This document shows positions 39,539 to 55,765 of a stretch of DNA of 64,000 nucleotides, piece after piece. Origin of the DNA: an uncultured bacterium (GTDB lineage: Bacteria; Hydrogenedentota; Hydrogenedentia; Hydrogenedentales; JAEUWI01); the NCBI GenBank assembly GCA_963977445.1, contig CAXBPH010000003.1, forward strand, positions 6,529-70,528. Direction: 5' to 3'. A model generated the notes under the pieces. The model was not told the origin of the DNA. It worked only from the letters and a program-made list of their open reading frames with translations, and did not search any database. The position numbers and the translations under genes were made by a program. Positions within the stretch are counted from its first letter, which is position 1; the number at the start of each line of letters is the position of its first letter.

Positions 39539-41461
39539 TTACTTGTCTTCTTCTTCGTCGTCGTCCACCACGGTGAAATCAGCATCAACGGCGTCGCCAT
39601 TGGATTCGTCGTCATCGGCAGGTGCTTCACCACCGGCGGCCGCTGCGGCTGCGGGATCGGCACCGGCATCCTTGTACATGGCTTCGGCAAGCTTATGGGA
39701 GGCCTTGGTCAGGTTTTCTACCGACTGTTCGATGGCGGCGATGTCGTCCCCTTCCAGGGCTTTTTTCAAATCAGCGATGGCCGCTTCGATGCTTTTCTTT
39801 TCGCCTTCGTCGATCTTTTCCGCGTTTTCAGTCAGCAGTTTCTCGGTCTGGTAGATCATGCTGTCTGCATTGTTGCGTACTTCGATTTTCTTCCGGCGAG
39901 ACTTATCTTCATCAGCATGGGTCTCGGCTTCGTTGACCATCTTCTCGATTTCGTCTTCGGAGAGGCCACTGGACGTTTCGACTTTGAGCTTCTGCTCTTT
40001 TCCGGTCGCCAGGTCTTTTGCCGATGCGTGGAAGATACCGTTGGCATCCAGATCAAAGGAAACCTGAATCTGAGGGACCCCACGGGGCGCTGGGGGAATA
40101 CCCATCAGGTCGAAATGCGCGAGAGTCCGGTTGTCGCCGGCCATTTCCCGCTCACCCTGCAGCACGTGAATCGTAACGGCAGTCTGATTATCGGCTGCCG
40201 TGGAGAAAATCTGCTGCTTCGTAACGGGGATCGTCGTATTGCGTTCAATCAGTTTCGTGCAGACGCCGCCTAAGGTCTCAATACCCAGAGAGAGGGGCGT
40301 GACGTCGAGAAGGAGTACATCCTTCACGTCGCCGGACAGCACACCGGCCTGAACCGCGGCACCAATGGCAACCACTTCGTCGGGATTCACGCCACGGTGG
40401 GGCGTCTTTCCGAAGATTTCTTCGACAACCGCGCCAACGGCGGGCATGCGGGTCATACCACCCACAAGAATGACTTCGTTGATTTCGGAAGCCGCAAGAC
40501 CGGCATCTTCCAGAGCGCGGTGGCAAGGATTCTTGCTGCGCTGAAGAAGGTGGTCTGCCAACTGCTCAAACTTGGAGCGGGTCAACGTGTAGTTCAGGTG
40601 CTTGGGACCGGAAGCATCGGCCGTGATGAATGGCAGATTGACGTCGGTCGACATGGCACTGGAAAGCTCGCACTTCGCCTTTTCACCGCCCTCTTTCAAG
40701 CGCTGAAGGGCCATGGGATCTTTACGCAGGTCGATGCCCTGTTCTTTTTGAAATTCTTCGGCCAGCCAATCGATGATTACCTGGTCAAAATCGTCACCAC
40801 CAAGGTGCGTGTCGCCACTGGTGCTGAGCACTTCAAAGCTGTCATCACCGATGGCCAGGATGGATACGTCGAAGGTACCGCCGCCGAGATCGTAGACCGC
40901 TACTTTTTCGTCCCGCTTCTTATCAAGACCATAGGCCAACGCGGCTGCGGTGGGCTCGTTGATAATGCGCAGCACTTCCAGACCAGCGATTTTACCGGCG
41001 TCTTTGGTCGCCTGGCGCTGAGAATCGTTGAAATACGCCGGCACCGTCACCACGGCCTGGGTCACTTCCGTGCCCAGATAGGACTCGGCCGTTTCCTTCA
41101 TCTTCTGCAGAATCATGGCAGAGATTTCAGGGGGACGGTAAGAGTTGCCCATGATTTCGACCTGGCAGTCTCCCGTGGAGGTCTCGCCGATCTTATAGGG
41201 GACGATTTTTTCTTCAGTGGAGACTTCGTCGTGACGACGTCCCATGAAGCGCTTGATTGAAAAGATGGTGTTGGTCGGGTTGGTCACGGCCTGACGCTTG
41301 GCGACAGCGCCGATAAGGCGTTCCCCGTCCTTGTTGAAGGCCACCACGGATGGAGTCGTGCGGTTACCTTCGGCATTGGCTATGACCACAGGTTCGCCGC
41401 CCTCCATGACAGCAACGCAGGAGTTGGTGGTGCCCAGGTCAATTCCAATTACTTTGCCCAT
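39539..41461 (-). CDS. dnaK: Chaperone DnaK (Hsp70)
   Basis: [18 protein letters not shown]..., [10 protein letters not shown] and the EEVD-like acidic C-terminus. Confidence 0.95.
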
Positions 41462-41572
41462 TGTATTTATTCCTCCTGATAGTACAACCCGACGGGGGCT
41501 GCCTGGCTCGTGGTATGAACGACGCTCCGCTCGGGAAGCGATGTGTAACGGTATAACTTCAGTTCGTCAGTT

Positions 41573-42268
41573 TTATTCGGCAGTATCGGAAGCCGGGGCC
41601 TCCGTTGATGTTGTTTCTTCGGCAACGTTGCCATCTTTCGTGGCGGCAGGTCCGCTGCTCACGACCACCTGGGCCGGTCGCAGGACGAAGTCACCCAGGC
41701 GATAGCCCCGCTGAAATTCTTCCATGACCGTGTCGGCTGGAAATTCATCCGACGGCTGGTGGGTCAGGGCTTCGTGTATGTTGGGGTCGAAGGGTTCACC
41801 CTTGGCGGGTATGGGCTCCAGCCCCTTGCCGCTCAATATGTCGGAAAATTGGCGTACCACCATCTCCACACCCAGCGCCAAACCGTCACTCTTGTCTTCC
41901 ACGTGGCTCAGGGCACGTTCCAGATTGTCGACAATGGGGAGCAGGTCACGCAACAGACCTTCGGCGGCCGTCTTGCGAATTCGCTCGCTCTCCCGCGCCA
42001 TACGTTTCCGATAGTTATCGAATTCCGCACGGGCACGAAGGGCCTGATCCTTGAGCTCATCGCGCTCGGCCCGCAGGGCAGCATTTTCGGCCTCCAACGG
42101 ATCGACATCAGCGTCGTCGTCGCTCAATTCCATATCGGGAAGGGCGTCACCATCTTCGGGCATTACGCCTTCCGCTGTGGACACATTATCTTCGTCCACC
42201 GCACTTCCTTCGATTATTTCGACCTCTTCGTTCACCTGAACCTCTTCTTTATGATTGTTTTTTTTCAT
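41573..42268 (-). CDS. grpE: Nucleotide exchange factor GrpE
   Basis: Coiled-coil N-terminus and the RAEFDNYRKR...LLPIVDNLERAL GrpE motifs. Confidence 0.85.
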   Translation of the reverse strand: MKKNNHKEEVQVNEEVEIIEGSAVDEDNVSTAEGVMPEDGDALPDMELSDDDADVDPLEAENAALRAERDELKDQALRARAEFDNYRKRMARESERIRKTAAEGLLRDLLPIVDNLERALSHVEDKSDGLALGVEMVVRQFSDILSGKGLEPIPAKGEPFDPNIHEALTHQPSDEFPADTVMEEFQRGYRLGDFVLRPAQVVVSSGPAATKDGNVAEETTSTEAPASDTAE

Positions 42269-42352
42269 AGTTAGTCGTACTTCTATAAGTCAGATTGAAT
42301 TGGCACTGCAAACGCCGTTTGGGGGCATAGGCTATGCGGCCCCGGTTGGGGT

Positions 42353-43405
42353 CTAGCGTGCCAGACGCGTCAGCATCCGGCTAACCATGCCTGCCGTATA
42401 GTCCACGATTGAGGTCAATCGCGAATAGGGCATACGCCGGGGACCGAGTATCCCAATCATGCCAATGGGCTCATCTTTGCAATAGTAAGGCGAGGCCACT
42501 ACGCTGATATCTTCCAGTCCTTTGGACCCATCGATTCGTCCGATGTGAATTGAACAGCTGATTCGTTTCTCATCGAGGAGTGCGTTCCTCAACATATCTG
42601 TCAGGACCGTTCGCTCTTCAAACAGGTCGAAGACCTCACGGGCACGATCCACACCCTGAAACTCAGGCTGGGCAAACAAGTGTCCTGCACCTTCCAGAAA
42701 CAATTGCGTCCGGCCGTGCTGTGGTGCCAGACCCAAGAGGCGTAAGGCCAGTTCAGCCGTCTTCCGACGCTCATCCAGGAAAGTCTTCAGCCGTTCTTCA
42801 ATGGCCTGGCTCAGACCGTCCAGTCGAACGCGATATAGATGGTCATTTAAGAACTGGCTGAGCGACTGCAACTGCTCCGGCCCGACCGTTTCATTCAGAT
42901 TCACGGTCTGCGTCCGCACCCGACCGTAGTTATCTACGATCAGCATAACCACCCGATGGGGCCCGACCGCCATTACCTCGATACGATTTACATAGGCATG
43001 TGAATCGCCCGGCGCTTCGGCCAAACCCGCCTGATTGGATATGAGCGCCAGCAATTGGCTGGTGTGCTGCAGCACCTCATCGGCATCATTCAATTTTTCG
43101 GTGAACTCATGCTCGATACGATTGCGCTCACGCAAGGTAAGCTCCTGCACGTGCATGAGGTAGTTCACATAATAGCGGTAGCCGGCATCCGTTGGAATAC
43201 GGCCAGAGCTGGTATGAATCTGCTGGAGAAAGCCCATCTCTTCGAGGTCGGCCATTACATTGCGCACGGTCGCGGGGCTTAACCCCAACTCGAAACGTTT
43301 AACGACAGAACGAGAACCCACCGGATCCGCCGTGGTAATGTAACTATTTACTACCGCTTGGAGGATTCGTTGTTCACGTTCGTTAAGATCACGGGCATCC
43401 GTCAT
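42353..43405 (-). CDS. hrcA: Heat-inducible transcription repressor HrcA
   Basis: LNEREQRILQAVVNSYITTADPVGSRSV winged-HTH N-terminus. First gene of the hrcA-grpE-dnaK-dnaJ order. ATG at 43405; ORF track uses an upstream GTG. Confidence 0.85.
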   Translation of the reverse strand: MTDARDLNEREQRILQAVVNSYITTADPVGSRSVVKRFELGLSPATVRNVMADLEEMGFLQQIHTSSGRIPTDAGYRYYVNYLMHVQELTLRERNRIEHEFTEKLNDADEVLQHTSQLLALISNQAGLAEAPGDSHAYVNRIEVMAVGPHRVVMLIVDNYGRVRTQTVNLNETVGPEQLQSLSQFLNDHLYRVRLDGLSQAIEERLKTFLDERRKTAELALRLLGLAPQHGRTQLFLEGAGHLFAQPEFQGVDRAREVFDLFEERTVLTDMLRNALLDEKRISCSIHIGRIDGSKGLEDISVVASPYYCKDEPIGMIGILGPRRMPYSRLTSIVDYTAGMVSRMLTRLAR

Positions 43406-43423
43406 GGGCTTGCATCCACACAC

Positions 43424-43490: not shown

Positions 43491-43620
43491 GTTGGCGACC
43501 GTTGCAAGTACCATGCCCCGAAGTATATAACGGGGCCGTACCCGTGGTGTCCTTGTTGTATCGCGCCGCTGGGTAAATTCGAATTTCAGGAAGGGTTGCG
43601 GAGTGAATGACGTAGGAGCC

Positions 43621-44754
43621 ATGCAGAAATCAATGGGGGTCACCGGTTCCCCCCGCGACACGATATTGACCCTTCTCGAGATCATCGATGTGCAGGAAAA
43701 TGGCGACCGACCCTGGGACATACAAATCAAGCAACCCACGGCATACCAACGTTTTATGAGCGAAGGACGCCTCGGTCTCGGCGAAGCCTATATGGATGGC
43801 GACTGGGATTGTGACGATCTCGCCGAATTCTTCCATCGCATCCTTTCTGCCAATTTCACCGACCGGGTGGACTGGTGGCGCATGATTATCCCGTATCTCC
43901 GGGCCCGACTCCTCAATCTCCAGAGTGTACACCGCTCGCGGGAAGTTGCGGAGCGCCATTATGATCTCGGCAATGGCTTGTATGAAAAAATGCTCGACAA
44001 GCGCATGGTATATTCCTGTGGTTACTGGAAAGATGCGACCGACCTGGAAACGGCCCAGGAACACAAGCTCGACCTGGTTTGTCGTAAACTTGGGCTAAAA
44101 CCCGGCATGAAAGTCCTCGATGTGGGCTGTGGCTGGGGCTCCTTTGCCCGGTTCGCCGCCGAGCGCTATGGCGTTGAGGTCGAGGGCATCACTATCTCGA
44201 AGGAGCAGTTGAGCCTGGCCAGGGAACATTGTGCCGGCCTCCCGGTCAACCTCCATCTCAAAGATTACCGCGATCTGACGGGCCAGTGGGACCGGGTGGT
44301 CTCCATCGGCATGCTGGAGCACGTCGGCCGAAAGAACTACGATGGATTCATGACCCAACTGCGCGATTGGCTCACCCCGGATGGCCTGGCCCTCGTCCAC
44401 ACCATCGTGGGGCGCTATCCCGTGCGGCGGAGCGACCCATGGATTACGAAATACATCTTCCCCGGTGGCATGTTGCCCACGCCCGGTCAATTGGGCGCAT
44501 CCTTCGAGGGCAAACTGGTCCTGGAAGACCTTCACAATATCGGCGCGGATTATGACAAGACGATCATGGCGTGGTGGGCCAATTTTGAGAAGGCCTGGCC
44601 CGAATTGGAGGCGGAATATGGGGAGCGTTTCTATCGGATGTGGCGCTACTACCACCACTACTGTGCCGGCTCCTTTCGCGCACGGTACAATCACGTGTTT
44701 CAAATGGTTTTGTCGCGACACGGCGTGCCCGGTGGTTATGAAGCCGTTCGATAG
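43621..44754 (+). CDS. cfa: Cyclopropane-fatty-acyl-phospholipid synthase
   Basis: HYDLGNGLYEKMLD, the VLDVGCGWG SAM-binding motif and C-terminal YYHHYCAGSF. The start is ambiguous (GTG 43603, ATG 43621 or ATG 43633). Confidence 0.85.
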   Translation: MQKSMGVTGSPRDTILTLLEIIDVQENGDRPWDIQIKQPTAYQRFMSEGRLGLGEAYMDGDWDCDDLAEFFHRILSANFTDRVDWWRMIIPYLRARLLNLQSVHRSREVAERHYDLGNGLYEKMLDKRMVYSCGYWKDATDLETAQEHKLDLVCRKLGLKPGMKVLDVGCGWGSFARFAAERYGVEVEGITISKEQLSLAREHCAGLPVNLHLKDYRDLTGQWDRVVSIGMLEHVGRKNYDGFMTQLRDWLTPDGLALVHTIVGRYPVRRSDPWITKYIFPGGMLPTPGQLGASFEGKLVLEDLHNIGADYDKTIMAWWANFEKAWPELEAEYGERFYRMWRYYHHYCAGSFRARYNHVFQMVLSRHGVPGGYEAVR

Positions 44755-44824: not shown

Positions 44825-45925
44825 GTGCGAGTCCTCTTCAATGCCATGCAGGCAGGCAACCAGAGCGGCACCGGGCGCTATGTGGAGGAACTCCTCCCTG
44901 CCCTCGCGGCCCTGGAGGATGCGCCCGAGTTCACGGTCGTCTGGCCGGAAGACGTGCCCCTGCCCGCAGGAAGCGACCGGCTGGAAATACGCCTCCAGCC
45001 CCGGGGACTGCGCCACCGTTTGGCCCTGGAGCGACGTCTTTACACGATGGCGGGGCAATTTGATGTCGTCCACTACCCCGCGACCATCGGCCCCCTGTGG
45101 CGCAAACCCAACCTGGTCATCACGGTACACGATTGTATTTTTCTCCACCACCCCGAGTGGTTCCGCAGAGAACGGGCTCTCTATTATCGATGGGCCGGAG
45201 CCTGGAGCATAGGGCGGGCCGCCCACCTTATTGCAGATTCAACGCATACCGCCCGGGATCTGGAGGCTTGGCTGTCCCCTCCCCCACCGAATATCACCAC
45301 CATTCCCCTGGGCGTAAGCGAGTCCTTTCGGCCGCAGGGCGCGGATGCTGTGGAGCGCGTCCGGAAACGCTATCAACTTCCTGAACGCTTCTTCCTCTAC
45401 GTCGGCACCCTCGAACCCCGCAAAAATCTTGCCCGTATCGTCCGCGCCTGGGATCAGGTTGCCGCCACCCTGCCCGAAGACCTGGTTATCGCGGGGCGGA
45501 TCGGTTGGAAAACCGGCGAACTGGAGGGAGCCATAGCCGCTGCGACGCACCAGGACCGCATCCACTGCCCCGGCTTCATTGAGTCCTCCGACCTGCCCGC
45601 GCTACTCTCCGCCGCCCACGCCTTCGTCTGGCCCAGCCTCTACGAAGGCTTCGGCCTGCCCGTGCTGGAGGCCATGGCCTGCGGCACCCCGGTCATCACC
45701 GCCAACACCACGAGCCTCCTGGAAATTGCAGACGGCGCGGCTCTCACTGTAGATCCTCGGGATGAAGGAGCCCTCGCCCGGGCGTTAACCCAAATCTCGA
45801 CGGATGGGGACCTTCACCGCACACTCGGAACGGCGGGACGTAAACGGGCTGATGAATTCACCTGGCAGCGTTGTGCCCAGGAAACCCGGGCGGTCTATGC
45901 CACGGTGGCCAACGCCCGCATCTGA
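44825..45925 (+). CDS. Glycosyltransferase family 4
   Basis: EGFGLPVLEAMACGTPVI GT4 motif. GTG start with AGGAG 9 nt upstream. Confidence 0.8.
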   Translation: MRVLFNAMQAGNQSGTGRYVEELLPALAALEDAPEFTVVWPEDVPLPAGSDRLEIRLQPRGLRHRLALERRLYTMAGQFDVVHYPATIGPLWRKPNLVITVHDCIFLHHPEWFRRERALYYRWAGAWSIGRAAHLIADSTHTARDLEAWLSPPPPNITTIPLGVSESFRPQGADAVERVRKRYQLPERFFLYVGTLEPRKNLARIVRAWDQVAATLPEDLVIAGRIGWKTGELEGAIAAATHQDRIHCPGFIESSDLPALLSAAHAFVWPSLYEGFGLPVLEAMACGTPVITANTTSLLEIADGAALTVDPRDEGALARALTQISTDGDLHRTLGTAGRKRADEFTWQRCAQETRAVYATVANARI

Positions 45926-46149
45926 GCCCCACACGGGCCATCCGGAGCCCTTGGGCGGACCCCAAGTCGTCCTGCATGCCGCCAACGTGGGATATCTACA
46001 GAAGAAACGAATCCCGGCCTATCACAGATTTTTTGCCGCAAGAGAACGCAAAGAGCGCAAAGGATTCACTTCTTTGCGATCGCTTGCGGCCAATACCATT
46101 GTCCCTGCGTTTATAATCGCCAAGGGTGTCGGCTTCAACGGTATTAGTC

Positions 46150-46199
46150 CATGAACCCCAAAAAAAAACGACGCGCTTCGGAGGGCCAAGGCTCTCACA
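46150..46199 (-). terminator. Rho-independent terminator of the repeat-protein gene
   Basis: 10-bp stem CGACGCGCTT / AAGCGCGTCG with a 20-nt loop. On the minus strand it is followed by T9 (the plus strand shows A9 at 46150-46158). Confidence 0.5.
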
Positions 46200-46233
46200 A
46201 AGCGCGTCGTAGAATTACGAACCGATATTGAAA

Positions 46234-47043
46234 TTAGACGGCGTCGGAAACGATTTTCTTTCCGGTAACCGGGCAAACTTTGGCTTCACCTTCGGAAGAA
46301 GCGGCTTTGGCCTTGTCACACTCAGACTTGGCTTTGTCGCAGGTCTTGGCTTCGCCTTCGGAAGAAGCAGCCTTGGCCTTGTCACACTCAGCTTTCGCTT
46401 TGTCACAAGTCTTGGCTTCACCTTCGGAAGAAGCAGCCTTGGCCTTGTCACAAGCGGACTTGGGGCATTCGCCTTCAGAGGAAGCAGCCTTCGCTTTGTC
46501 ACAGGTCTTGGCTTCACCTTCAGAAGAAGCGGCTTTGGCCTTGTCACACTCAGACGTGGCTTTGTCACAGGTCTTGGCTTCGCCTTCGGAAGAAGCAGCC
46601 TTGGCCTTGTCACAGGTCTTGGCTTCACCTTCGGAAGAAGCGGCCTTCGCTTTATCGCACTGCTTCGCTTCACCTTCGGAGGAAGCAGCCTTGGCTACCT
46701 TCGTCTTGCAGCAGCTGGACGCTTCACCTTCAGAGGAAGCCGCCAACGCCTTATCGAAGGTCGCCTGCCGGTCGGCGATCAGCTTGGCTTTCTTTTCGCA
46801 TGGCTGAAAGGCATCTTCATTCGCTGCGGAAACCGTCTGCATGCCGAAGAAGGAGGCAACACTGTTCTTAGCACTCGTGATGGCGCAGGAACCTGATGCT
46901 CCGTTGTTCGCAACAACGCCAGCAGTCGCCACGCCGGATACGACGACCATAGCAGCAACGAAGGATGCCCATTTGCCTTTGTTACGTTTCGGTGCTTGAG
47001 CCGTTTCTTCGGTCACAAGCTCTTCCTGATGTTCTTCGTTCAT
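46234..47043 (-). CDS. Single-pass membrane protein with ~10 tandem 15-aa Cys/Lys/Ala-rich repeats (CDKAKAASSEGEAKT), function unknown
   Basis: Short cytoplasmic N-terminus, TM helix WASFVAAMVVVSGVATAGVVA, then the repeat array with ~17 Cys including C-x6-C and C-x4-C pairs. C-terminus VCPVTGKKIVSDAV. ATG at 47043 has GGAG 9 nt upstream. Shadow ORFs exist in the other frames. Confidence 0.55.
   Translation of the reverse strand: MNEEHQEELVTEETAQAPKRNKGKWASFVAAMVVVSGVATAGVVANNGASGSCAITSAKNSVASFFGMQTVSAANEDAFQPCEKKAKLIADRQATFDKALAASSEGEASSCCKTKVAKAASSEGEAKQCDKAKAASSEGEAKTCDKAKAASSEGEAKTCDKATSECDKAKAASSEGEAKTCDKAKAASSEGECPKSACDKAKAASSEGEAKTCDKAKAECDKAKAASSEGEAKTCDKAKSECDKAKAASSEGEAKVCPVTGKKIVSDAV
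46270..46745. repeat. ~10 tandem copies of a 45-bp coding repeat (with 12-21-bp insert variants)
   Basis: Near-identical units GCTTCACCTTCGGAAGAAGCGGCTTTGGCCTTGTCACA... are visible directly. The repeat is continuous and in frame, so it is not spacer/repeat organised like a CRISPR array. Confidence 0.8.
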
Positions 47044-47562
47044 TGAATATTGCTCCACAAGTGTTTAAATAAGTTACCCATGCAATCTACACGATAAACA
47101 TAGATTCAAAATTGACCCGATTTCATGTCAAAACCTGGAATTATTCGTAGGGTTCAGCATAACAAAAACTCCGCCACTTCGCAATCCTGTCGAAGCGCGC
47201 ATTTCCACGAACCCGAAAGAAATGAAAACAACCTAACCATCTCAATTTAAAGGCGTTACATAAAGTGTGTCTTTAACCCACAATCGCTGGAACGGCTACG
47301 TCGTCAGCTCACCAAGTTTCAATGCAGTGCAATTTGTCCGAAAAATCGCTGAAAACAGGTTGGTTGGCCGAGAACATTCATGAAATAACTGCCCCATAGG
47401 CCATGCCCCCACGAAGCCCCGACTCAACCGGTATTTTGCCGACTTCCGACGATGTTGCCGATGTTTTTGAGGAAGTGGTGGCGGAGTCTTGTGCGGGTGT
47501 CTTGGTGGCTTGGGTCGTTGTCGGTCATCGTCGGCTGCCTTTTAAGATTGCCGAAAAGGGGC

Positions 47563-47766
47563 CTACTCTGCGGGATGCGCAGCCGTGATCGCGACGGGCT
47601 CCGAGGCCTCGCGGCTCTTGCGCATGAGTTCCTGGTCGATCATGCCAAGTTCGGCGGCCAAACCGGCTGCGGCTACGGACAGGCAGGTTTCTTCCACTTC
47701 CGCCGCGTGGCGCATCCATTCGGGAAAAGGAAACGCATCACTTGTGCTATTCATATCCATGGTCAT
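47563..47766 (-). CDS. Small hypothetical protein (67 aa); its start overlaps the stop of the upstream GNAT-like gene by 4 nt
   Basis: ORF only. No motif recognised. The overlap suggests translational coupling. Confidence 0.3.
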   Translation of the reverse strand: MTMDMNSTSDAFPFPEWMRHAAEVEETCLSVAAAGLAAELGMIDQELMRKSREASEPVAITAAHPAE

Positions 47767-48329
47767 AGGTGCCTTTCCAGAATTCTCTCTGCATTGTCGC
47801 GCGAAAGTTCAAAGTACGTCAAGTTTTCGAAATCCACGTCAGGGCCCAACGGTGTCATCCAACACGCCCCTCCGTAGAAGGGTACGGACTGCGGCAAGGC
47901 ATGTAGGCCCACTCGACCTCCAAAGCCTTCGTCCCAGCTTTGCCGGACGGCGCGCTCGAACAGGTGGGGACCAATCAGGCCGTATTTTCGCGTTTGCCCG
48001 ATACCTGGAATGGTCCAGTTCCAAGGGGCGACTTCCAGGAAGTCTATATATACCAGCGGCTTGCCATGATCTTCGCCGAGTTGGGAGAAATGTGTCCCAG
48101 ACTTGGTCAGCATGGCACCCTGCCATTCGTCGTCACAGACCACGGCGAATCCAGATGCAGGAACCAGGCGCAGGTGCTGCGCCTTGGCCCGCCAGTTCCA
48201 GTTGAGGCTCTGGGGTCGCTCGGAATAGGGAAGACCCGCGCGGGCTATTTCGAGAAGGATGCGGGAGCGTTCTGGAGTCCACACCGATTCCAGTGTCAGC
48301 AGGTCTTCAGGCGCGACGAGGAGGGCCAA
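47763..48329 (-). CDS. GNAT-fold acyltransferase-like protein (tentative)
   Basis: 188 aa. VYIDFLEVAPWNW and EGFGGRVGLHAL weakly resemble GNAT motif regions. It sits between the low-GC acpS and the small ORF. Confidence 0.4.
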   Translation of the reverse strand: MALLVAPEDLLTLESVWTPERSRILLEIARAGLPYSERPQSLNWNWRAKAQHLRLVPASGFAVVCDDEWQGAMLTKSGTHFSQLGEDHGKPLVYIDFLEVAPWNWTIPGIGQTRKYGLIGPHLFERAVRQSWDEGFGGRVGLHALPQSVPFYGGACWMTPLGPDVDFENLTYFELSRDNAERILERHL

Positions 48330-48348
48330 GCTGTTCTGCCTTCACGGC

Positions 48349-48732
48349 CTACTCACCCGTTGCGATGGCACTGGCGAAAGCGATTCCGCTCGAATAGCTA
48401 ATACTCACATGCCAATCTAAGATACCGAGCTCATCAGAAAACTTTGCCACGTCATGATTTAGCCTTACATATGGAGCCCCGTTCTTCCCCCGAAGAATTT
48501 CTATTCCATGCCACGTTATTTTTCCAGAAAACCCAGTACCAAGAGCCTTTGCGATGGCCTCCTTTGCGGCGTATCTACCTGCATAGTAACGATAGTGGGC
48601 TGGGGGAGGGTCGGCGGCTTCTCGCTCGTCTATTGAGCAAAAGCAATTGACCCAGCTATTCGTACCTGAGTCAATTTCATTTCTTATACGTTGAATTCTT
48701 TCAATATCGATTCCGTGACCAATGATTCGCAT
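48349..48732 (-). CDS. acpS: Holo-[acyl-carrier-protein] synthase (4-prime-phosphopantetheinyl transferase, AcpS type), low GC and probably island-borne
   Basis: MRIIGHGIDIERIQRI...YAAKEAIAKALGTG...WHVSISYSSGIAFASAIA aligns along its whole length with the AcpS family. The gene is ~40-50% GC in a ~60% GC genome. Confidence 0.85.
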   Translation of the reverse strand: MRIIGHGIDIERIQRIRNEIDSGTNSWVNCFCSIDEREAADPPPAHYRYYAGRYAAKEAIAKALGTGFSGKITWHGIEILRGKNGAPYVRLNHDVAKFSDELGILDWHVSISYSSGIAFASAIATGE

Positions 48733-48740
48733 GCATCCCC

Positions 48741-50624
48741 CTATTTTATTTCTCGAACTACGATATCTCTCTTGTCAAGATCCAGGTCAACAGTTCCGCC
48801 TCCACGAGATTTCAACTCTCTCCAAACTTTGAAGCCCTGCAGGATAGCGCGTTCCCATTCTCCCGTTGTGCATGCTGACACCTCAAGATGAAGGACGGTA
48901 TTCTTTATCATTCGTAACAATTCACTACTGACCGACAATTTACCCTCTAGGAAGTTGTAGTCACGAGCGTAGGCAAAAATCATTGCCGATAGTGCCTCTT
49001 CCGTGACAATCGCCCTTGCACCATCTTCCACTTCGTCAACTTTCGGATCACTCTTTCGCTTCGCTGTGAACATTTTCCTGACGAGTGGAGACCAACCTAG
49101 AACCGCAGCGAAAGACAAATGGATTACATCGTGGAGTCCGTAACCATCGTTCTCGTAAGCGTTGTCAGTCAAGTCATCACCAAACTGCTGACCCTTGTAC
49201 ATCACCCGTATTTTTGGGTTGTTGAATTCGTCATGGTATGTGCTGAAATCGAGTGAAAAACTACGTGGAAATTGTTCATTTTCGGGATATCCTGCATCGA
49301 ACGGAGTTCGCGAAGGTAACGTGCCCCACCGTTCATCACATTTCGCCAAGTTAAGCTCGGCGATCTCCTTCAGATCGAGATTAAACTTCGTGGCGACGTT
49401 TGCCACATACCACAGCAAGTCTCCGAGTTCCTCGCTTAAGCGGTCCTTAAACAATTTATGCGTGTCACCGTCCCGAAGATATTTCTTGTATTCACTCAAC
49501 AATTCACCGGATTCGCTTGCGAGGCCCAACAGAGGAATCGTTAGCGAAGACTCGTCCACACCGGGATTTTGATCTGTCCCGGCAACTTTCTCTTGGTATT
49601 TGCCCATATCCATGGCTCTTGTCTCCAGGTTCACCCCCGTACTCGATCGATTTTCTTCGTTTGAGCTGGTACGGCTGATTAATTCGTTTATGCCCCACTT
49701 GGGTGGGTACCAATAGTCGATTGGTTCTAAAATAGGCTTCAGCTTCTGCTTTATGCGACTTCGCCCTGATTTTCCGACGAATTCTGGATGTACAACTCGC
49801 GCGTACTTGTCTACTTCACAAAACAGGTTTTGGCAATCAATCAATTGAAGCGGCCTTCCCCATAAGTCGGAAAAATCTATGCCCAGTCGATTAAATTCCT
49901 CATCCTGCCTCTCGGTCACCCACCGGATTATTTGTGCAGTATCCTTCTTTCCCGGGTTTAGAAAGCACTTCTGGATTCCATCGAGTGCTCCGGGGCCTGC
50001 GACCACAAAGTCCATTTCAGAGAAGTTAATGATGGTGCTGTAGTTCAAATCGGTAACATACTGATAGGCTAGAAAGTTGCCTATCCCAGGTGATGACCGC
50101 ATTGATTCGAACGCCTCTTCCATGGACTCCGAATCAGCAATTCGTTTCGGTAGCTCCGAAGACATCATGTATTCAAGTAACTTAAGATGGTTCTGGTGTT
50201 TGAATGTTAGCGAAAATTTTCGGACGGAGGGCATTATATAGGCTGCGGAATAGATCCGCTGGCCTCGCGTCATCGCCTGACTTAAGACACGGTCATATGC
50301 CTTGTATGAGTAATCGGCGTATGTGAGATGGCCAAGCTCATTCTCAAGTAGTTTCCATGTATCGATGCGATTGAAAAGTTTGAATAGAATTATGCGAAAA
50401 AACACTTCAGCTGGATGAGTCGGGAGGTCTTCGTTGTATATTACGTTCCTAATGAGATATTGGCTCACTCTGTCAGAGGCTCTGTAGGCGTTCGTGAATT
50501 TGTGGTTTTGAAGCACAGCGTCATCCGTCCACGGAAGAGGGCGCTTACTTATTCGTCGAAAGAAGATTCTCTGTCGCTCGGCGGCGAATTTCCAATACGT
50601 ATCGTATACAGGAGTAGTTTTCAT
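48741..50624 (-). CDS. 627-aa multidomain protein: N-terminal uncharacterised domain (possibly aGPT-pyrophosphorylase-like) plus a central MazG-like NTP pyrophosphohydrolase domain
   Basis: Central ESGELLSEYKK...EELGDLLWYVANVATKFNLDLKEIAELNLAKCDERW matches the MazG EExxE / ELGDxL motifs. The N-terminal 300 aa (MKTTPVYDTYWKFAAERQRIFFRR...PWTDDAVLQNHKFTNAYRASDRVSQYL) reminds me of nucleotide-base hypermodification-associated families, but I cannot verify that here. Confidence 0.6.
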   Translation of the reverse strand: MKTTPVYDTYWKFAAERQRIFFRRISKRPLPWTDDAVLQNHKFTNAYRASDRVSQYLIRNVIYNEDLPTHPAEVFFRIILFKLFNRIDTWKLLENELGHLTYADYSYKAYDRVLSQAMTRGQRIYSAAYIMPSVRKFSLTFKHQNHLKLLEYMMSSELPKRIADSESMEEAFESMRSSPGIGNFLAYQYVTDLNYSTIINFSEMDFVVAGPGALDGIQKCFLNPGKKDTAQIIRWVTERQDEEFNRLGIDFSDLWGRPLQLIDCQNLFCEVDKYARVVHPEFVGKSGRSRIKQKLKPILEPIDYWYPPKWGINELISRTSSNEENRSSTGVNLETRAMDMGKYQEKVAGTDQNPGVDESSLTIPLLGLASESGELLSEYKKYLRDGDTHKLFKDRLSEELGDLLWYVANVATKFNLDLKEIAELNLAKCDERWGTLPSRTPFDAGYPENEQFPRSFSLDFSTYHDEFNNPKIRVMYKGQQFGDDLTDNAYENDGYGLHDVIHLSFAAVLGWSPLVRKMFTAKRKSDPKVDEVEDGARAIVTEEALSAMIFAYARDYNFLEGKLSVSSELLRMIKNTVLHLEVSACTTGEWERAILQGFKVWRELKSRGGGTVDLDLDKRDIVVREIK

Positions 50625-50672
50625 ATTAACCGGCCGAAAGTATACGAGTACAGTGGAGTCATTTTTGTCTTT

Positions 50673-51497
50673 CTAAAAATCGTCATGAATAGGCTCGGAA
50701 ACTGTGCTCGTCACAGATTTGCAAAGTATTTTGTTAGAGCGCGTGATCAAGTCACGTGCATTGCGTACCCCCCAAGGAAATTGTTTTGAATCCTTAATTC
50801 TGGCTGGGCCTTTATCAATTTCGGCATGTGTGGAGACACAGGTGAGCGAACCGACGGTTAGGCCAGCTCGCTCTGCCACAAACGCCTGAAGTTGCCCCAA
50901 ACCGATTAGATTGCCAAGGCACCGAGATATGTACGTGTGGTTACGGTACATTGCTGTAAGCATCAAGCCCTTGTTTGGATGACATTTAAAGCTCAAAAAA
51001 CTGAGGCATTGTCCCCCCCATCGACTACGCCCATCCTCCAAGGGATCGTAAACCGCTAGCTCATATGCCGACTTGAACTTCTGACCACCATTCTCGCGTT
51101 CTTGTAGCTTACCGATCAGCTGTTCTAGTGGATTGTATGTCTTGCCGAGCCTAGTCTGATGCCTGGTCATTCGCTCAAAGTACCTACCCCAGCGCCGGGT
51201 CTTCGTCAGTCTATCGAACGCTTCATGGTATTTCTCGTAGAACACCGGAGCCCCGTGCTGATTGTAGAGTGATTGGGGAAAAATCGTGTTACAGACCGTG
51301 GATATGGGGTAGCAATCGTACTTTCGTAGAAAATCGTCTACCTCTGAAATGATTTCATTGTCAGTTGAATCGAACGATACGGGATTTTCTACATCAACAA
51401 TAACGTTGTATCCCTCATCATTGTGCTTCATGATCTCCATTGCAGCCGCTACCCACGCTCGCGCACAACTCTTCTGTGTCGGGATGGCGATGTACAT
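50673..51497 (-). CDS. Thymidylate-synthase-fold enzyme (ThyA / dCMP-dUMP hydroxymethylase superfamily, divergent)
   Basis: GGQCLSFLSFKCHPNKGLMLTAMYRNHTYISRCLGNLIGLGQLQAFVAERAGLTVGSLTCVSTHAEID aligns with the ThyA core PCHAFFQFYV...[21 protein letters not shown]...VGDFVWTGGDTHLY. QCL sits at the position of the catalytic PCH. Confidence 0.55.
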   Translation of the reverse strand: MYIAIPTQKSCARAWVAAAMEIMKHNDEGYNVIVDVENPVSFDSTDNEIISEVDDFLRKYDCYPISTVCNTIFPQSLYNQHGAPVFYEKYHEAFDRLTKTRRWGRYFERMTRHQTRLGKTYNPLEQLIGKLQERENGGQKFKSAYELAVYDPLEDGRSRWGGQCLSFLSFKCHPNKGLMLTAMYRNHTYISRCLGNLIGLGQLQAFVAERAGLTVGSLTCVSTHAEIDKGPARIKDSKQFPWGVRNARDLITRSNKILCKSVTSTVSEPIHDDF

Positions 51498-51509
51498 AGA
51501 AAGGTCTCC

Positions 51510-52157
51510 CTAATGCGTAATAAATGCGGAAAAGATTCGCGACCCGAGATAACGTTTGCTCAACCAGGCGTAGCCATGAAGGCCCCAGGATTCACCCCAA
51601 CTGTTTCTGATAGCGATATACTTTTCGCTGTTTTTCGTAGCTGTTGCGACGGCAACAACAGCGTGTCGTCGAACCGGGTCGATAGGCTCAGTTGAATCAA
51701 CGATTCCAACGTTGTCCGGGGTATAGAACGCATCTGAGAACGACATCGCGAGGACGACGGGCTTGTCGGTTTGGATGCAGTCCCAAACGGCGTCAAATGT
51801 GGCGGTTAAGGCGCTAGTATGGCATTGGAAAAGTTGCCCTACGTTGTTGGGAGGCTTCCAGTGCGAAATTGGGCTTGGCAATGCCTTGAGGTAGGGCCAG
51901 GCGAGTTCGTTCGGTTGCCCGTCCCCAGTTAATGCAGAGCATACCCCCGGAATGGAAACACCCAAATCTGGAGAGCTTCTCTCCCACTTTATCGCGTAGT
52001 AGTATAGGTACTCACACGACAAGGGTTGCCAATTCCTCTCCAGTGCGGCGGAATGTGCGTCGCTCGTGGCGAACGCCAGGCATGTCGGGCGCGCTCCTTG
52101 ATCGCGAGCGCTGCCAAAATATGGTCGTAGGTCGTGACGGATAATCATCGAACTCAT
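51510..52157 (-). CDS. Papain-like cysteine peptidase (C1A-like, compact, no pro-region)
   Basis: QGARPTCLAFA matches the QG-x-C-G-S-C-W-A-F spacing of the catalytic Cys. HAVVAVA matches the His region. NSWGESWGLHGYAWL matches papain NSWG..WG..GY. Confidence 0.7.
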   Translation of the reverse strand: MSSMIIRHDLRPYFGSARDQGARPTCLAFATSDAHSAALERNWQPLSCEYLYYYAIKWERSSPDLGVSIPGVCSALTGDGQPNELAWPYLKALPSPISHWKPPNNVGQLFQCHTSALTATFDAVWDCIQTDKPVVLAMSFSDAFYTPDNVGIVDSTEPIDPVRRHAVVAVATATKNSEKYIAIRNSWGESWGLHGYAWLSKRYLGSRIFSAFITH

Positions 52158-53167
52158 GGGCGACTCAACATTGCTTGGCGTTGAGCTGGCAGGAGGCCGG
52201 TTTGTAGTGGTCCTGTCAAGTTTACATCAAATTCGAGCGACTGTAGAGATTCATCATCTGAGAGCCATGGTCGCTGTTCACGAAGATTCACGTGACCGAG
52301 TGCCGACTGCTCCGGTTCAGCCACGATCTTACGTTCGACAATACTACCGATTGCATTTTCAGTCGAGCGGGCCTCTCGGATGTCCTCAACTATTTTGAGG
52401 CCGACTTTGGAGAGACTGTCAAACGACCACATGTACCCTGATGAAGCGTGTTCGATCAGCTCGAGAATCACGATGTCGTGCGCGCTTCCTTCAATTAGGA
52501 GCCTTTGATCGCCCATGCCAAGCACCCATATATCCGCATACCATGATTCTGGGGTGTGCTGTTTGGTGAGCTGCTGCTTGATAGATTTTGGTTGGGTTTT
52601 GAGCAGGGAGTCTCGTACTGATTTCGAAATCGCATTGTGCTTGAGGAGCGCATGACAAGTCGCCGCATAGCTTGACCCCATCCGTAAGGCCAATTGGTAG
52701 ACTATTTTCGGAGACGTTAGGTCTGAGCTCGCCCACCCTTGTTGACCCATGTGGTGCGTGATTAGCCATTTCGGTGTAAGCAGTTCGGAGGCAAACGCAT
52801 TTGCCTGCAGTTCTATGAGATCAAGAGCTGCCCCGCTCTCAAACGGAGTTCGGTTTAGCCTGGATTCGTCATCTAGACTAGACGAGTGCCCCATGACCGC
52901 GTGACCCAATTCGTGTGCTGCCGTGAAGCGCTGTACGGAAAGGGGGCGTTGTGTGGTCAACAGAACTCCAGATCCATTTTCTTCCAAATAGCATCCGAGC
53001 AGCCCCTTCATCGGTTGGAACATGACAGGTATGTCGAGAGCTGCGAGAAGTCCAAACACATCGATGCGTCCCACCCCACTCTTTACCTTTTTTTTGACAC
53101 CATGGCTAGCATGTAATCGGTTAGCAGCAAGAGCCGCCTCGAGTATAGCCTTACGAACGTCTGGCAT
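52154..53167 (-). CDS. ImmA/IrrE-family zinc metallopeptidase (COG2856) with a ~190-aa C-terminal domain of unknown function
   Basis: HEXXH in AAHELGHAVMGH, preceded by the typical ImmA helix. Its start overlaps the C1 peptidase gene by 4 nt. Confidence 0.75.
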   Translation of the reverse strand: MPDVRKAILEAALAANRLHASHGVKKKVKSGVGRIDVFGLLAALDIPVMFQPMKGLLGCYLEENGSGVLLTTQRPLSVQRFTAAHELGHAVMGHSSSLDDESRLNRTPFESGAALDLIELQANAFASELLTPKWLITHHMGQQGWASSDLTSPKIVYQLALRMGSSYAATCHALLKHNAISKSVRDSLLKTQPKSIKQQLTKQHTPESWYADIWVLGMGDQRLLIEGSAHDIVILELIEHASSGYMWSFDSLSKVGLKIVEDIREARSTENAIGSIVERKIVAEPEQSALGHVNLREQRPWLSDDESLQSLEFDVNLTGPLQTGLLPAQRQAMLSRP

Positions 53168-53170
53168 AGG

Positions 53171-53551
53171 TCAGCCCCCTTTTTGCGCTTTCCTCGATTT
53201 CAAGAATTCTGCGAATCTGGCGAGTTCGCTGCGATCTTCCGGGGCCAATTCAGATACCTGCCGTGCCAGATGAGCGACTTCCTTGTCAACTGGATGCGTG
53301 TCAGCGGTTTCACCGGTAAAAAAGTTCAGAGACCTCCCGTAGAGTTCGGCTAATTTCTTGAGTTCAAACACTTCAACTTTCCTCAGCCCTGCTTCCATCA
53401 AAGATAGCGCGGAACGAGAAGTACCTACTTTCGTGGCTATTTCGTTCTGGGAGAATCCAACATACTCTCGGGCTTCACGTAGCCGGTCACCAAGTACCTT
53501 TCTATCGCTATCACCTTCAACTTTTTTATTGTTGGGAGCTCTACTACTCAT
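53171..53551 (-). CDS. XRE-family (Cro/C1-type) helix-turn-helix transcriptional regulator
   Basis: LGDRLREAREYVGFSQNEIATKVGTSRSALSLMEAG is the HTH_3 motif. The ATG at 53551 overlaps the stop of the upstream ACP-like gene in an ATGA arrangement. Confidence 0.8.
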   Translation of the reverse strand: MSSRAPNNKKVEGDSDRKVLGDRLREAREYVGFSQNEIATKVGTSRSALSLMEAGLRKVEVFELKKLAELYGRSLNFFTGETADTHPVDKEVAHLARQVSELAPEDRSELARFAEFLKSRKAQKGG

Positions 53552-53868
53552 TTGCTTCCCTTTCTTTTTTCCTCTTCTTGGCACAATTTATCTATACGCA
53601 GCATCATATCGTCAATTGCTTCATCAACACTTTGATAGCCGCCTTTTCGTATAGTCTTGTCTGGAGGTAGTCGAAAACCAACGATTGGCTCGATGGCTAA
53701 CAAAGTGCTTACGACGGCAAAGGAGTCCAAAAGTGGCTCCCAAACCTTGCGCAACAGAGCCCCCTCATCCACAATCTCGTCAAGCTTGTCAGTCAAAACT
53801 GCCCGAATTTCGCAAGAAGTCAAATGAACATCTTCGTCGATTTGAAACGCTGTGGATGTGTTTGCCAT
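53548..53868 (-). CDS. Acyl-carrier-protein-like (phosphopantetheine-binding) small protein
   Basis: LLDSFAVVSTLLAIEPIVGFRLPPDKTI...SVDEAIDDMMLRI parallels ACP helix II/III (DSLDTVELVMALEE...FGIEIPDE...TVGDLVDYI), with Ser in DSF at the 4-prime-PP attachment position. Confidence 0.55.
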   Translation of the reverse strand: MANTSTAFQIDEDVHLTSCEIRAVLTDKLDEIVDEGALLRKVWEPLLDSFAVVSTLLAIEPIVGFRLPPDKTIRKGGYQSVDEAIDDMMLRIDKLCQEEEKRKGSK

Positions 53869-53935
53869 ACCGAATCTCCTGTGCTACTTGGTTAGGATAC
53901 CAAAATTCAGTTGGAAAATCAAACACAAAATATCA

Positions 53936-53958
53936 ATATGTTAGATTTTCTAACATAT
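53936..53958. promoter_or_regulatory. Perfect palindrome ATATGTTAGA-TTT-TCTAACATAT upstream of the island operon; candidate XRE-repressor operator
   Basis: 10-bp arms seen directly, ~70 nt upstream of the ACP-like gene start. A second long dyad (TATAGCCCAGGG...CCCTGGGCTATA) lies at 53961-54024. Confidence 0.45.
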
Positions 53959-54059
53959 GGTATAGCCCAGGGTTTTGCTTGTTCGCGCTTGGGGCGTGAA
54001 CTTGCTGCGCCCTGGGCTATAGTGTGTCACCCCGTTGGGGCTATTCAGATCGCCCTGTA

Positions 54060-54294
54060 CGGATTCGCCGAAGAATGACACTTCGCCCGAAGTGGGCGCC
54101 AGCAACCCCATGAGCACCTTGATGGTCGTGCTCTTACCCGCGCCATTGGGCCCGAGAAGGCCGAAGGCGGCCCCACGCTTTATTTGGAGATTGAGGCCGT
54201 GGACACCATCTCCGTGTTCGTAGGTTTTTACGAGTTCTGAGATTTCGACCACCGACTCGGTCTTCACCGGGGCCTGTTTATCCATAACCTGCAC
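54060..54294 (-). pseudogene. N-terminal fragment of an ABC transporter ATP-binding protein (Walker A GPNGAGKST) with nonsense readthrough after ~78 aa
   Basis: ORF 53950..54294. Homology is recognisable only to ...SGEVSFFGESV; the remaining 35 aa are unrelated junk before the stop. The break coincides with the island boundary. Confidence 0.5.
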
Positions 54295-54436: not shown

Positions 54437-55765
54437 ATGGCCGAAGATCTATTTGAAAATGCCGCCGCTGAGCGGATGCGGAAGGAAGCCCCGCTGGCCC
54501 GCCGTATCGCCCCCCGCACCCTCGATGACTTTGTGGGGCAGGAGCATATCCTCGGGCATGGCAAACTCTTGCGTCGCGCCATCGAAGCCGATCGCATCAC
54601 CTCCCTCCTCCTTTATGGTCCCCCGGGCACGGGCAAGACCGCGCTGGCGCGTATTATCGCCATGCGGACCAAATCGGCCTTTGAACCCTTAAATGCGGTG
54701 ACGTCGGGCGTGAAAGAGCTGCGGGAACTCCTGGCCCAGGCCAAGCAACGGCGCATCCACCAACAGAAGCGCACCATCGTTTTCGTGGACGAAATTCACC
54801 GATTCAATAAGGCCCAGCAGGACGCCCTCCTCCCCGATGTGGAGAATGGCAACATCACCATGATCGGTGCCACCACGGAGAACCCCTTCTTCTCCGTCGT
54901 CGCGCCTCTCCTCTCCCGTTCCCAGATTTTTGAATTCAAACGTCACACGGAAGAAGCCCTCGTCGGCTTACTGCGCCGCGCCCTCACACATCCCGAGCTG
55001 GGGATGGACCCCGAGACCATCACGGTAGACGACGACGCCTTCGCTCATATCGCGCGCTATGCCGAAGGGGATGTGCGCCGTTCCCTCAATGCCTTGGAAG
55101 TGGCCCTGCTTACCACGCCGGTGGTCGATGAGAAGATTCACATCACCGTGGAAGAAGCCCGGGAATCCATCCAGCGCAAACTCCTCCACTACGATGGCAC
55201 GGGCGATGGCCACTATGACGCGGCCTCGGCTTTTATCAAATCCATGCGGGGGAGCAATCCCGATTCGGCCCTCTATTGGATGGCCCGCATGCTGGAAGCC
55301 GGTGAAACGCCGCGCTTTGTGGCGCGACGCATCTGCATCGCCGCGTCGGAAGATGTGGGCAATGCCGACCCCATGGCGCTGGTGCTGGCGAACGCCGCCT
55401 TCCAGACCTGTGAGTTCATCGGCATGCCCGAAGCGCGCATCATGCTCGCCCAGGCCGTGACCTACATCGCCGCCGCCCCCAAGAGCAATGCGTCCTACGC
55501 GGCCATCGACGCCGCCATCGCGGCCGTGCGGGAAGAAAAAACCACCGAAATTCCCAAACACCTCCAGGATGCCCACTACAAGGGGGCCAAACGACTGGGT
55601 CACGGGGCCAACTATCAGTATGCCCACGATTTTGAAGACAACTACGTCACCCAGGACTACGGCATCCCCCGGGGCACCTTCTATCAGCCCACGAAAAATG
55701 GCAAGGAAGCCGAAATAAAGGCCTGGATGGATGAACTCGACGCCCGGGACCGGGGAGAGAACTAG
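54437..55765 (+). CDS. rarA: Replication-associated recombination protein A (AAA+ ATPase RarA/MgsA)
   Basis: [19 protein letters not shown] Walker [13 protein letters not shown] Walker B/sensor, and a C-terminal MgsA helical domain. Confidence 0.9.

Follow-up and report, generated by a model that had tools for sequence, protein, structure and literature searches.

What kind of protein is encoded by a gene that spells the same cysteine-bearing peptide over and over, and what might such a protein do? The question is raised by an open reading frame (ORF) on the minus strand of a 64,000-nucleotide stretch of contig CAXBPH010000003.1, from an uncultured bacterium of the Hydrogenedentota; we call that whole stretch the window. 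An earlier note, made from the letters alone, placed the ORF at exactly 46234..47043, and these limits hold, giving a protein of 269 residues. It begins MNEEHQEE, reads MNEEHQEELVTEETAQAPKRNKGKW-ASFVAAMVVVSGVATAGVV-..., continues with reiterated CDKAKAASSEGEAKT, and finishes with CPVTGKKIVSDAV. The start codon is the ATG at 47043. An in-frame GTG lies upstream at 47058, and we reject it as the start because all homologues begin MNEE.. The features discussed below are collected in Table 1.

The repeats themselves tell which frame is translated. Seven units encode the same 12-mer, CDKAKAASSEGE, and the 21 pairwise comparisons between them give 82 nucleotide differences, all at the third codon position and none at the first or second. 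This split fixes the Cys/Lys/Ala frame as the coding one, and it indicates purifying selection on the repeat peptide. The homologues agree, keeping the MNEE.. start, the hydrophobic helix and the repeat in that same frame, as the earlier note had proposed over the Pro/Lys/Arg-rich shadow frame at 46215..46673. The locus is a genuine protein-coding gene under purifying selection. The shadow ORFs, both the one at 46215..46673 and those on the plus strand, are ruled out by the codon-position test and are by-products of the repeat.

The conserved unit is a 13-residue module, not a 15-residue repeat, and it occurs 5-14 times per protein between linkers of variable length. In 121 instances from 15 proteins, the consensus is A-K-A-A-[S/T]-S-E-G-E-A-K-x-C. 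The A, A, S, E and E are invariant beyond the positions imposed by the search pattern, the Gly is present in 106 of the 121, and a Cys stands at module position +10 in 100; in the 13 instances with Gly at +10, the Cys is usually found at +11. The distance from one module to the next is most often 15 residues (43 cases), followed by 21 (14), 16 (12), 17 (12), 18 (9), 22 (8) and 24 (4). Linkers often add a second Cys, creating CC, Cx4C, Cx5C or Cx6C pairs that recur in most members. The window protein has nine AASSEGE modules, seven of them with the exact 12-mer, spaced in order by 18, 15, 15, 22, 15, 17, 22 and 22 residues, with the linkers DKAK, DKA(T/K)(S/A)ECDKAK, PKSACDKAK or SSCCKTKV. The tandem array that had been described as about 10 near-identical 15-residue repeats thus exists, with nine modules at spacings of 15, 17, 18 or 22. 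At the DNA level, Tandem Repeats Finder detects the array at three periods (45, 66 and 162 bp), where matches amount to 76-87% and the score reaches 524. The 269 residues include 16 Cys (6%), of which 14 are within residues 96-269 (174 residues, 8%); the repeat domain is Cys-bearing as the earlier note had it, with fewer Cys than its estimate of about 17 in about 170 residues. They come mostly one per 15 residues, plus some CC, Cx4C and Cx6C. The protein terminates 12 residues past the last repeat, and its relatives terminate in ..CPITG(K/N)KTTA(A/S)V or ..CPKAAAAKAA(A/V)AAV; the divergent member P0009 has an internal CPVTG.

These relatives make up a protein family that is real and so far unrecorded, with an unusually rigid repeat module. 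We define it by an MNEE-type tail, one helix with SGVAT(A/T)G, at least three AA[ST]SE[GE]E-x3-C modules, and a divergent mgsA neighbour; the window protein has all of these, in common with P0001-P0004, L003-L005, L007, L009 and L011 (P for proteins, L for loci). Members are 190-330 residues long. A word-indexed search of 5.8 billion (5.8e9) clustered proteins returns six matches, and a profile search of 1.84 billion (1.84e9) representatives returns nine. A genome scan finds seven loci, all in metagenome-assembled genomes (MAGs) of Candidatus Hydrogenedentota/Hydrogenedentales from marine, lake and groundwater samples, and a metagenome scan finds five further loci; one Tara Oceans contig is 100% identical to window positions 45347-47183. 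There are about 20 relatives in all, and every one that can be placed falls in Hydrogenedentota. On these searches, this is a small family restricted to uncultured Candidatus Hydrogenedentota. The plasmid and phage collections give no match to the gene, and there is no paralogue within the 64-kb window.

The earlier note did not recognise a known family, and we find none either. Searches of Pfam, NCBIfam and PDB sequences, with the single sequence and with a profile, return nothing beyond noise, namely DUF7263 over the hydrophobic helix (E = 0.09) and a YSIRK lipase (E = 0.26); six other members are likewise without a Pfam match; Foldseek searches of the predicted structures against the PDB give a best E of 6.9 or worse; and literature searches find nothing on this protein. 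The part of the protein before the repeats evolves fast. Its identity is 58% to that of L003, where mgsA is 97% identical, and 43% to those of L005 and L009. The mgsA of the window is 97% identical to that of two family-bearing MAGs, which places the window in a marine member of the phylum. The module is identical across proteins whose N-regions share only 43-62% identity. That 11-13 residues stay invariant while the remainder diverged to about 43% identity points to a specific molecular interaction. The conservation of the module is striking.

The earlier expectation of a single transmembrane helix followed by a Cys repeat domain agrees with the hydrophobicity profile. The sole hydrophobic segment is at residues 26-44, with a 19-residue Kyte-Doolittle mean of 2.11, and the mean is at or below 0.44 everywhere after it; AlphaFold2 (AF2) places a helix at residues 22-44, and the family alignment shows no variation at W25, F28, G37, A39 or T40. 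Four positive and no negative charges precede the helix within 10 residues, and one positive charge follows it within 15, so by the positive-inside rule the acidic tail would be cytoplasmic and the repeats outside. The protein is predicted to be bitopic, with a cytoplasmic acidic tail, one inner-membrane helix, and the whole repeat domain extracytoplasmic. Residues 26-44 could be a membrane anchor or else a signal, uncleaved or cleaved, with a possible signal-peptidase site between A-T-A and G in the conserved SGVATAG. The N-terminal tail is conserved across the family as MNEE[HQY].E, which argues that the N-terminus is retained. There is no lipobox of the form [LVI][ASTVI][GAS]C; the first Cys has the context A-S-G-S-C in the window protein, and that context differs or is absent in relatives (none in P0004).

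Residues 96-269 include 41 Ala, 33 Lys, 24 Ser, 21 Glu, 14 Cys, 12 Asp and 10 Gly. Lys plus Arg and Asp plus Glu both sum to 33, one Phe is the sole aromatic residue, and there is no His, Met, Trp or Tyr. With Ala as the only abundant apolar residue, this composition implies that the domain has no hydrophobic core. Given the family alignment, AF2 finds no globular fold; from the single sequence of residues 125-269, it draws five helices, interrupted at CPKS and at the Ser-Ser in three of the modules. The predicted local distance difference test (pLDDT) scores of the two models, 50 and 66, and predicted template modelling (pTM) scores of 0.25 and 0.34 are of low confidence, below the quality needed to assign a fold. 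The repeat domain is thus predicted to be either helical, with breaks at the module Ser-Ser, or disordered. The S-E-G-E might tentatively be seen as a helix N-cap, which would fit the breaks of the single-sequence model. We considered and dropped the idea of a single helix face bearing all the Cys: whole turns are matched by spacings of 15, 18, 21 and 22 but not by those of 16, 17 and 24, and the helical register is also broken by the 6-residue inserts of L003 and L004.

The gene appears to be equipped for strong expression. Upstream, the window and its three closest loci (L003, L004 and L012) share a gap-free conserved block, TTGC[GA]A-N17-TATGCT preceded by TG, which we read as a sigma-70-type promoter with an extended -10 element, a predicted transcript start near 47149 and a predicted 5' untranslated region (UTR) of about 106 nt. 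It has 8 of the 12 consensus positions, one under the threshold of the promoter/terminator scanner, which is why the scanner does not list it. Against the more distant relative L001, nothing upstream is conserved beyond the Shine-Dalgarno site. Downstream, the strong terminator of its own that the earlier note gave to the gene is borne out: the hairpin at 46210..46168, followed by U9, has a folding energy of -37.7 kcal/mol where shuffled sequences average -22.6 (z = -5.0), and none of the 200 shuffles is as stable. The scanner reported neither signal; the promoter was located by upstream alignment and the terminator by folding, the latter having been missed because its hairpin loop exceeds the limit of the scanner. 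Codon choice is like that of the dnaK of the same window or beyond it, and unlike that of the other neighbouring genes (GCT for 21 of 59 Ala, GGT for 7 of 16 Gly, GAA for 25 of 29 Glu, TCT or TCC for 28 of 32 Ser). Conserved promoter, Shine-Dalgarno, strong terminator and dnaK-like codon bias together suggest high expression. Of the roughly 500 nt of AT-rich upstream DNA claimed before, the AT-richness is real (GC content 0.41-0.48 against about 0.6 in the flanks), and the region resolves into about 220 nt of AT-rich DNA, the conserved promoter and the 5' UTR of about 106 nt; the distal part, 47430-47560, has a GC content of at least 0.55. In that GC-richer distal part we noticed by eye a possible 34-codon ORF (MTDNDPSHQDTRTRLRHHFLKNIGNIVGSRQNTG) at 47425-47527 on the minus strand, which begins directly after the stop of a 67-residue ORF (47563-47766). 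A scan of 45800-48000 with Rfam gives only sub-threshold microRNA noise, and no riboswitch or known leader.

What would such a protein do? We propose, with a probability of roughly 0.3, that it is a multivalent thiol array, tethered to the membrane on the extracytoplasmic side, whose Cys would bind soft metals or hold sulfur or disulfide equivalents; the earlier note had likewise named metal or redox binding outside the cytoplasm as a possible role. In each module, a single Lys-flanked Cys would stand at a set distance from the acidic start of a helix, S-E-G-E; adjoining modules would act together with the Cys of the linkers to chelate Cu(I), Zn, Cd or Hg, or else to carry sulfane sulfur or disulfides; the repeat domain would gain structure upon binding; and capacity would scale with the number of modules. 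Such scaling would explain why copy number drifts while the sequence of the module stays fixed. We favour this reading because the domain has no hydrophobic core, few aromatics and no His, balanced charge, CC pairs, a tolerant Cys spacing, and a module number that changes freely. In these features, the repeat domain would resemble a diluted metallothionein. If the proposal is true, it amounts to a new design for extracytoplasmic metal or sulfur handling, and possibly to a natural template for repeat-tunable metal-binding polymers. A fuller version of it, which we regard as doubtful, pictures a tethered ladder of Ser-capped, Ala-rich short helices with one thiol each, folding around chains or clusters of soft metal or carrying sulfane sulfur, with a capacity set by module number; it would be distinct from the Cys-dense cytosolic metallothioneins and from the Csp bundles, and confined to Hydrogenedentota, Planctomycetota having a counterpart that may be convergent.

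Several observations weigh against a thiol array. Metallothioneins contain 20-30% Cys, the ectodomain only 8%. Conservation is highest at A-A-S-S-E-G-E and not around the Cys, which suggests a specific role in recognition or structure, beyond what chelation alone would require. The one conserved neighbour is mgsA, with no metal transporter, no metal sensor and no thiol-disulfide oxidoreductase, and inspection by eye alone reveals no recognisable metal-regulator operator upstream. Single-copy, syntenic, with dnaK-like codons, and found in genomes from oxic ocean, lake and groundwater, the gene gives the impression of a housekeeping part of the envelope rather than of a stress protein. Finally, thiols in an oxidising periplasm may simply be disulfides.

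The main rival is that the protein could be a structural envelope tether, an abundant inner-membrane-anchored spanner of the periplasm, helical or flexible and rich in Ala, Lys and Glu, in which Cys disulfides, between modules or between molecules, would staple it or cross-link it to other envelope proteins and copy number would set the length. We hold this to be possible, though short of likely. An anchor followed by a long K/A/E-rich domain of predicted helix would have a role comparable to that of TolA domain II or Lpp, and the conserved cytoplasmic tail suggests that the N-terminus is kept. The signals that agree with high constitutive expression (promoter with extended -10, GGAG, strong terminator, dnaK-like codons), the single-copy and syntenic gene, and the tolerance of length variation all suit a tether. 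A spacer, however, needs no invariant motif of 11-13 residues; TolA domain II and similar linkers are poorly conserved. The variable spacing of the linker Cys (CC, Cx4C, Cx5C, Cx6C) is odd for disulfides that define a fold, vicinal CC are rarely disulfide-bonded, and Cys totals are odd in some members (15 in L009, 19 in L011). The C-terminus also brings no globular or peptidoglycan- or outer-membrane-binding domain, and there are no tolQR/pal neighbours.

Next ranks the reading, which we find unlikely, that an enzyme or partner recognises the module at every repeat, for example for O-glycosylation or phosphorylation of the Ser-Ser or for a Ser/Thr-to-Cys cross-link, making the product a multiply modified envelope polymer. 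It would account for where conservation is strongest, on A-A-[S/T]-S-E-G-E plus a Cys at a fixed +4 offset despite 43% identity elsewhere, a pattern typical of short linear motifs read by another protein. General O-oligosaccharyltransferases of Neisseria and Burkholderia target Ala/Ser-rich low-complexity segments of periplasmic proteins. What it lacks is a modifying enzyme that stays beside the gene: the GT4 glycosyltransferase (44825..45925) has convergent orientation and adjoins the repeat gene in no relative, and the AcpS belongs to a block that the relatives lack at this position. Phosphopantetheinylation by this AcpS is rejected on the same ground, and also since the target domain is predicted to be outside the cytoplasm.

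A very unlikely explanation is a contingency-type surface antigen of variable repeat length, in which slippage of the repeat gives rapid phenotypic variation. Near-identical relatives do differ in copies: P0001 and L011, with N-regions 98% identical, have 8 and 14, and L003 and L004, 95% identical, have 12 and 11, within a family range of 5 to 14; exact direct repeats of 44-60 nt exist in the family genes. The counts are to be read with caution. Five contigs (L006, L007, L008, L012 and L013; MAG or metagenome) break inside the repeat gene, which makes the repeat a systematic breakpoint of short-read assembly and leaves copy numbers taken from assemblies possibly collapsed and uncertain. L006 and L008 are the two halves of the repeat gene from one MAG. 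The units are 45 nt long and in frame, so that slippage would alter length and not switch the gene on or off, and the peptide is invariant rather than diversifying. Phase-variable loci have perfect short repeats that shift the frame or the promoter spacing, unlike this 45-nt, in-frame unit with cores 89% identical.

Nor does the array look young. The earlier note took the DNA repeats to be nearly identical and recently expanded, and suggested contingency variation; neither claim survives. Identity between units is 89% over the 36-nt repeat cores and 0.675 at third codon positions, the latter close to the 0.69-0.70 seen for mgsA between the window organism and its nearest sequenced relatives at 96% amino-acid identity. 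The synonymous divergence among units is thus that between related species, and units within one gene are no more similar than units between orthologues. One block pair, 46280-46386 and 46508-46614 (107 nt, 97% identical), indicates that some block duplication is more recent. Of the proposed repeat-length variability, the difference in copy number among close relatives stands, subject to the uncertainty of the counts, and the contingency mechanism is not supported.

Still less credible is a multi-core precursor of secreted peptides or of ribosomally synthesised and post-translationally modified peptides (RiPPs), lanthipeptide- or ranthipeptide-like, with the modules released as peptides. The same peptide is indeed reiterated many times, as Ser/Thr-plus-Cys cores flanked by Lys, but over some 12 loci (including the window, L001 and L003-L009) the gene is not consistently accompanied by a maturase, protease or exporter, the N-terminus is a transmembrane or signal segment and not a leader peptide, and members are as long as 190-330 residues. 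That the real product is a shadow frame, or the region non-coding repeat DNA, is practically untenable: long ORFs are open in several frames on both strands across the repeat, but besides taking all 82 differences at its third position, only the Cys/Lys/Ala frame runs into the conserved N-terminal region with its Shine-Dalgarno and ATG, and only this frame is kept in all relatives.

Divergent mgsA is the only conserved neighbour, and it serves as a synteny marker. The distance between it and the repeat gene is 200-350 nt in L001, L005, L006, L007 and L009, 2-3.6 kb in L003 and L004, and 7.4 kb in the window. Across the compared loci, the gene has no constant companion among transporters, oxidoreductases, glycosyltransferases, maturases or regulators. 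Downstream genes vary by clade: yqeY, a sigma-70_r4 protein and an NTP transferase in L001 and L003-L005, uppP in L009, and GT4, cfa and hrcA-grpE-dnaK in the window, whose downstream side is not syntenic with that of the relatives. There, the hrcA-grpE-dnaK set (39539-43423, minus strand) lies 3-7 kb downstream of the repeat gene, and a cyclopropane-fatty-acid (CFA) synthase gene (43603-44754) and the GT4 gene (44825-45925) lie between the two.

The repeat gene and mgsA are separated in the window by a block of about 7 kb, 47560-54400, where five relatives have only the gap of 200-350 nt. Its GC content is lower, 0.43-0.49 at 48.5-50 kb, and we find neither a tRNA nor flanking direct repeats. 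L003 and L004 bear different inserts at the same site, so the intergenic region between mgsA and the repeat gene looks like an insertion hotspot. Among the genes of the block is a 5-hmdU DNA kinase/MazG fusion, here in a bacterial chromosome block near XRE and IrrE-like genes; 5-hmdU DNA kinase and MazG-type domains derive from phage thymidine-hypermodification systems.

Table 1. Positions in the window of the repeat-protein gene, its parts and signals, and neighbouring genes.
Feature	Position	Strand	Basis or remarks
Repeat-protein coding sequence	46234..47043	minus	269 residues + stop; ORF list and sequence
N-terminal acidic tail MNEEHQEELVTEE..	46972..47043	minus	residues 1-24, ends in basic KRNKGK; predicted cytoplasmic
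Hydrophobic segment ASFVAAMVVVSGVATAGVV	46912..46968	minus	residues 26-44; Kyte-Doolittle and AF2 helix
Repeat array	46273..46755	minus	residues 97-257; nine ..AKAASSEGEAKxC.. modules; 14 Cys, net charge 0, without His, Met, Trp, Tyr
C-terminal tail CPVTGKKIVSDAV	46237..46275	minus	sequence and comparison with relatives
Shine-Dalgarno GGAG	47053..47056	minus	9 nt before ATG; kept in L001, L003, L004, L012
Candidate sigma-70-type promoter	47156..47184	minus	-35 TTGCGA (47184..47179), 17-nt spacer, extended -10 TGtTATGCT (47164..47156)
Intrinsic terminator	46160..46210	minus	GC-rich hairpin (46210..46168) + U9 run
mgsA/rarA-type AAA+ ATPase gene	54437..55765	plus	Pfam MgsA_C E = 1.6e-66; divergent orientation
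Two ORFs without Pfam match	47563-47766 (67 residues), 47763-48329		in 7-kb block
AcpS-type phosphopantetheinyl transferase	48349-48732		in 7-kb block
5-hmdU DNA kinase helical domain + MazG + MazG_C fusion	48741-50624	minus	627 residues; PF18723 E = 2.5e-114
Uncharacterised ORF	50673-51497		in 7-kb block
Partial papain-like peptidase C1	51510-52157		in 7-kb block
IrrE/M78 peptidase fused to chagasin-type inhibitor domain	52154-53167		in 7-kb block
XRE helix-turn-helix protein	53171-53584		in 7-kb block
Truncated ABC ATPase	53950-54294		in 7-kb block

Hydrogenedentota is a globally distributed phylum, and at the level of titles and abstracts the literature gives no report of a cultured representative or of cell-envelope biology in it. 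Judged from sequence, the repeat protein appears to be one of the lineage-defining, probably abundant envelope proteins of this phylum. Trypsin should free the peptide AASSEGEAK in about seven copies per molecule, which would make it a ready metaproteomic marker for expression and modification.

Among other proteins, the only significant match outside the family is to Planctomycetota/Phycisphaerae proteins (E = 9e-8, 64% identity over 28% of the query). These secreted proteins (P0005, P0015, P0018, P0020, P0022 and others) have similar Cys-punctuated Lys/Ala/Ser/Thr repeats, such as CAKTCDKAKTASAEGG and GCSKSKEAQTASAEGGC, and like the window protein they are predicted to be exported and have no Pfam domain or functional name. 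They differ in an extra folded N-terminal region of 'MTYKVGDxETxC' modules and in a conserved C-terminal helix, and neither the AASSEGE module nor the MNEE tail is present in them. Convergence in composition may explain the similarity, and the set may be an analogue of the window protein. As a set of their own (L002, L015-L018; P0005, P0013-P0044), these proteins have three or four 'MTYKVGDxETxC...A' modules and a C-terminal helix 'EDTPELAxAKxxVREIVE(Y/F)'; their gene contexts are inconsistent and uninformative, one copy being divergent from feoAB. We followed P0005 as a possible annotated relative, and all such look-alikes are hypothetical proteins.

Four better-known systems share parts of this design. 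The Helicobacter cysteine-rich proteins, built of Sel1-like repeats with one disulfide per helix pair, are also exported repeats with Cys in each short helical unit. The window units are 15-24 residues instead of 36, lack the hydrophobic Sel1 consensus and often have a single Cys, and neither the window protein nor the six other members match Sel1 in Pfam. TolA domain II and Lpp share an N-terminal inner-membrane anchor, a long helical region rich in Lys, Ala, Glu and Asp, and signals of high expression; the window protein has the helix at residues 26-44 and 41 Ala, 33 Lys and 21 Glu in its 174 residues, with helices predicted at low confidence. It has no TolA domain III, no tolQR/pal context and no lipobox, and differs in its regularly placed Cys and in an invariant motif where TolA has a loosely conserved spacer; Pfam gives no TolA or TonB_C match, and the neighbours are GT4, CFA synthase and mgsA. 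The copper storage proteins Csp1 and Csp3, four-helix bundles of the DUF326 family, are alike in their Ala-rich helices and comparable Cys density. Csp proteins have a Cys density of about 10-13%, and Csp1 is exported. The window protein, by contrast, has no confident bundle model (pLDDT 50 and 66) and no twin-arginine motif, and DUF326 does not match it in Pfam at E up to 10, nor the six members at E up to 1.

The fourth system is the metallothioneins. The composition of the repeat domain resembles that of metallothioneins, both bacterial (SmtA/BmtA) and modular animal ones: the Cys are accompanied by Lys, Ser, Ala, Asp, Gly and Thr, there are CC and CxnC pairs, His, Trp and Tyr are absent (residues 96-269 have a single Phe), and a hydrophobic core is lacking. 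No metallothionein matches in Pfam or NCBIfam (E up to 10) or in PDB sequence searches, with the single sequence or the profile. PMC8476144 describes how the metal-binding Cys domains of modular animal metallothioneins expand by tandem duplication, and in the window family, as in that account, module number changes by tandem duplication. The window protein differs from metallothioneins in its Cys content, 8% of the repeat domain where theirs is 15-30% and grouped in CxC, CC or CxxC clusters, and in its overall form: it has 269 residues, is membrane-anchored and predicted to be extracytoplasmic, and sets a long invariant motif of other residues between one Cys and the next.

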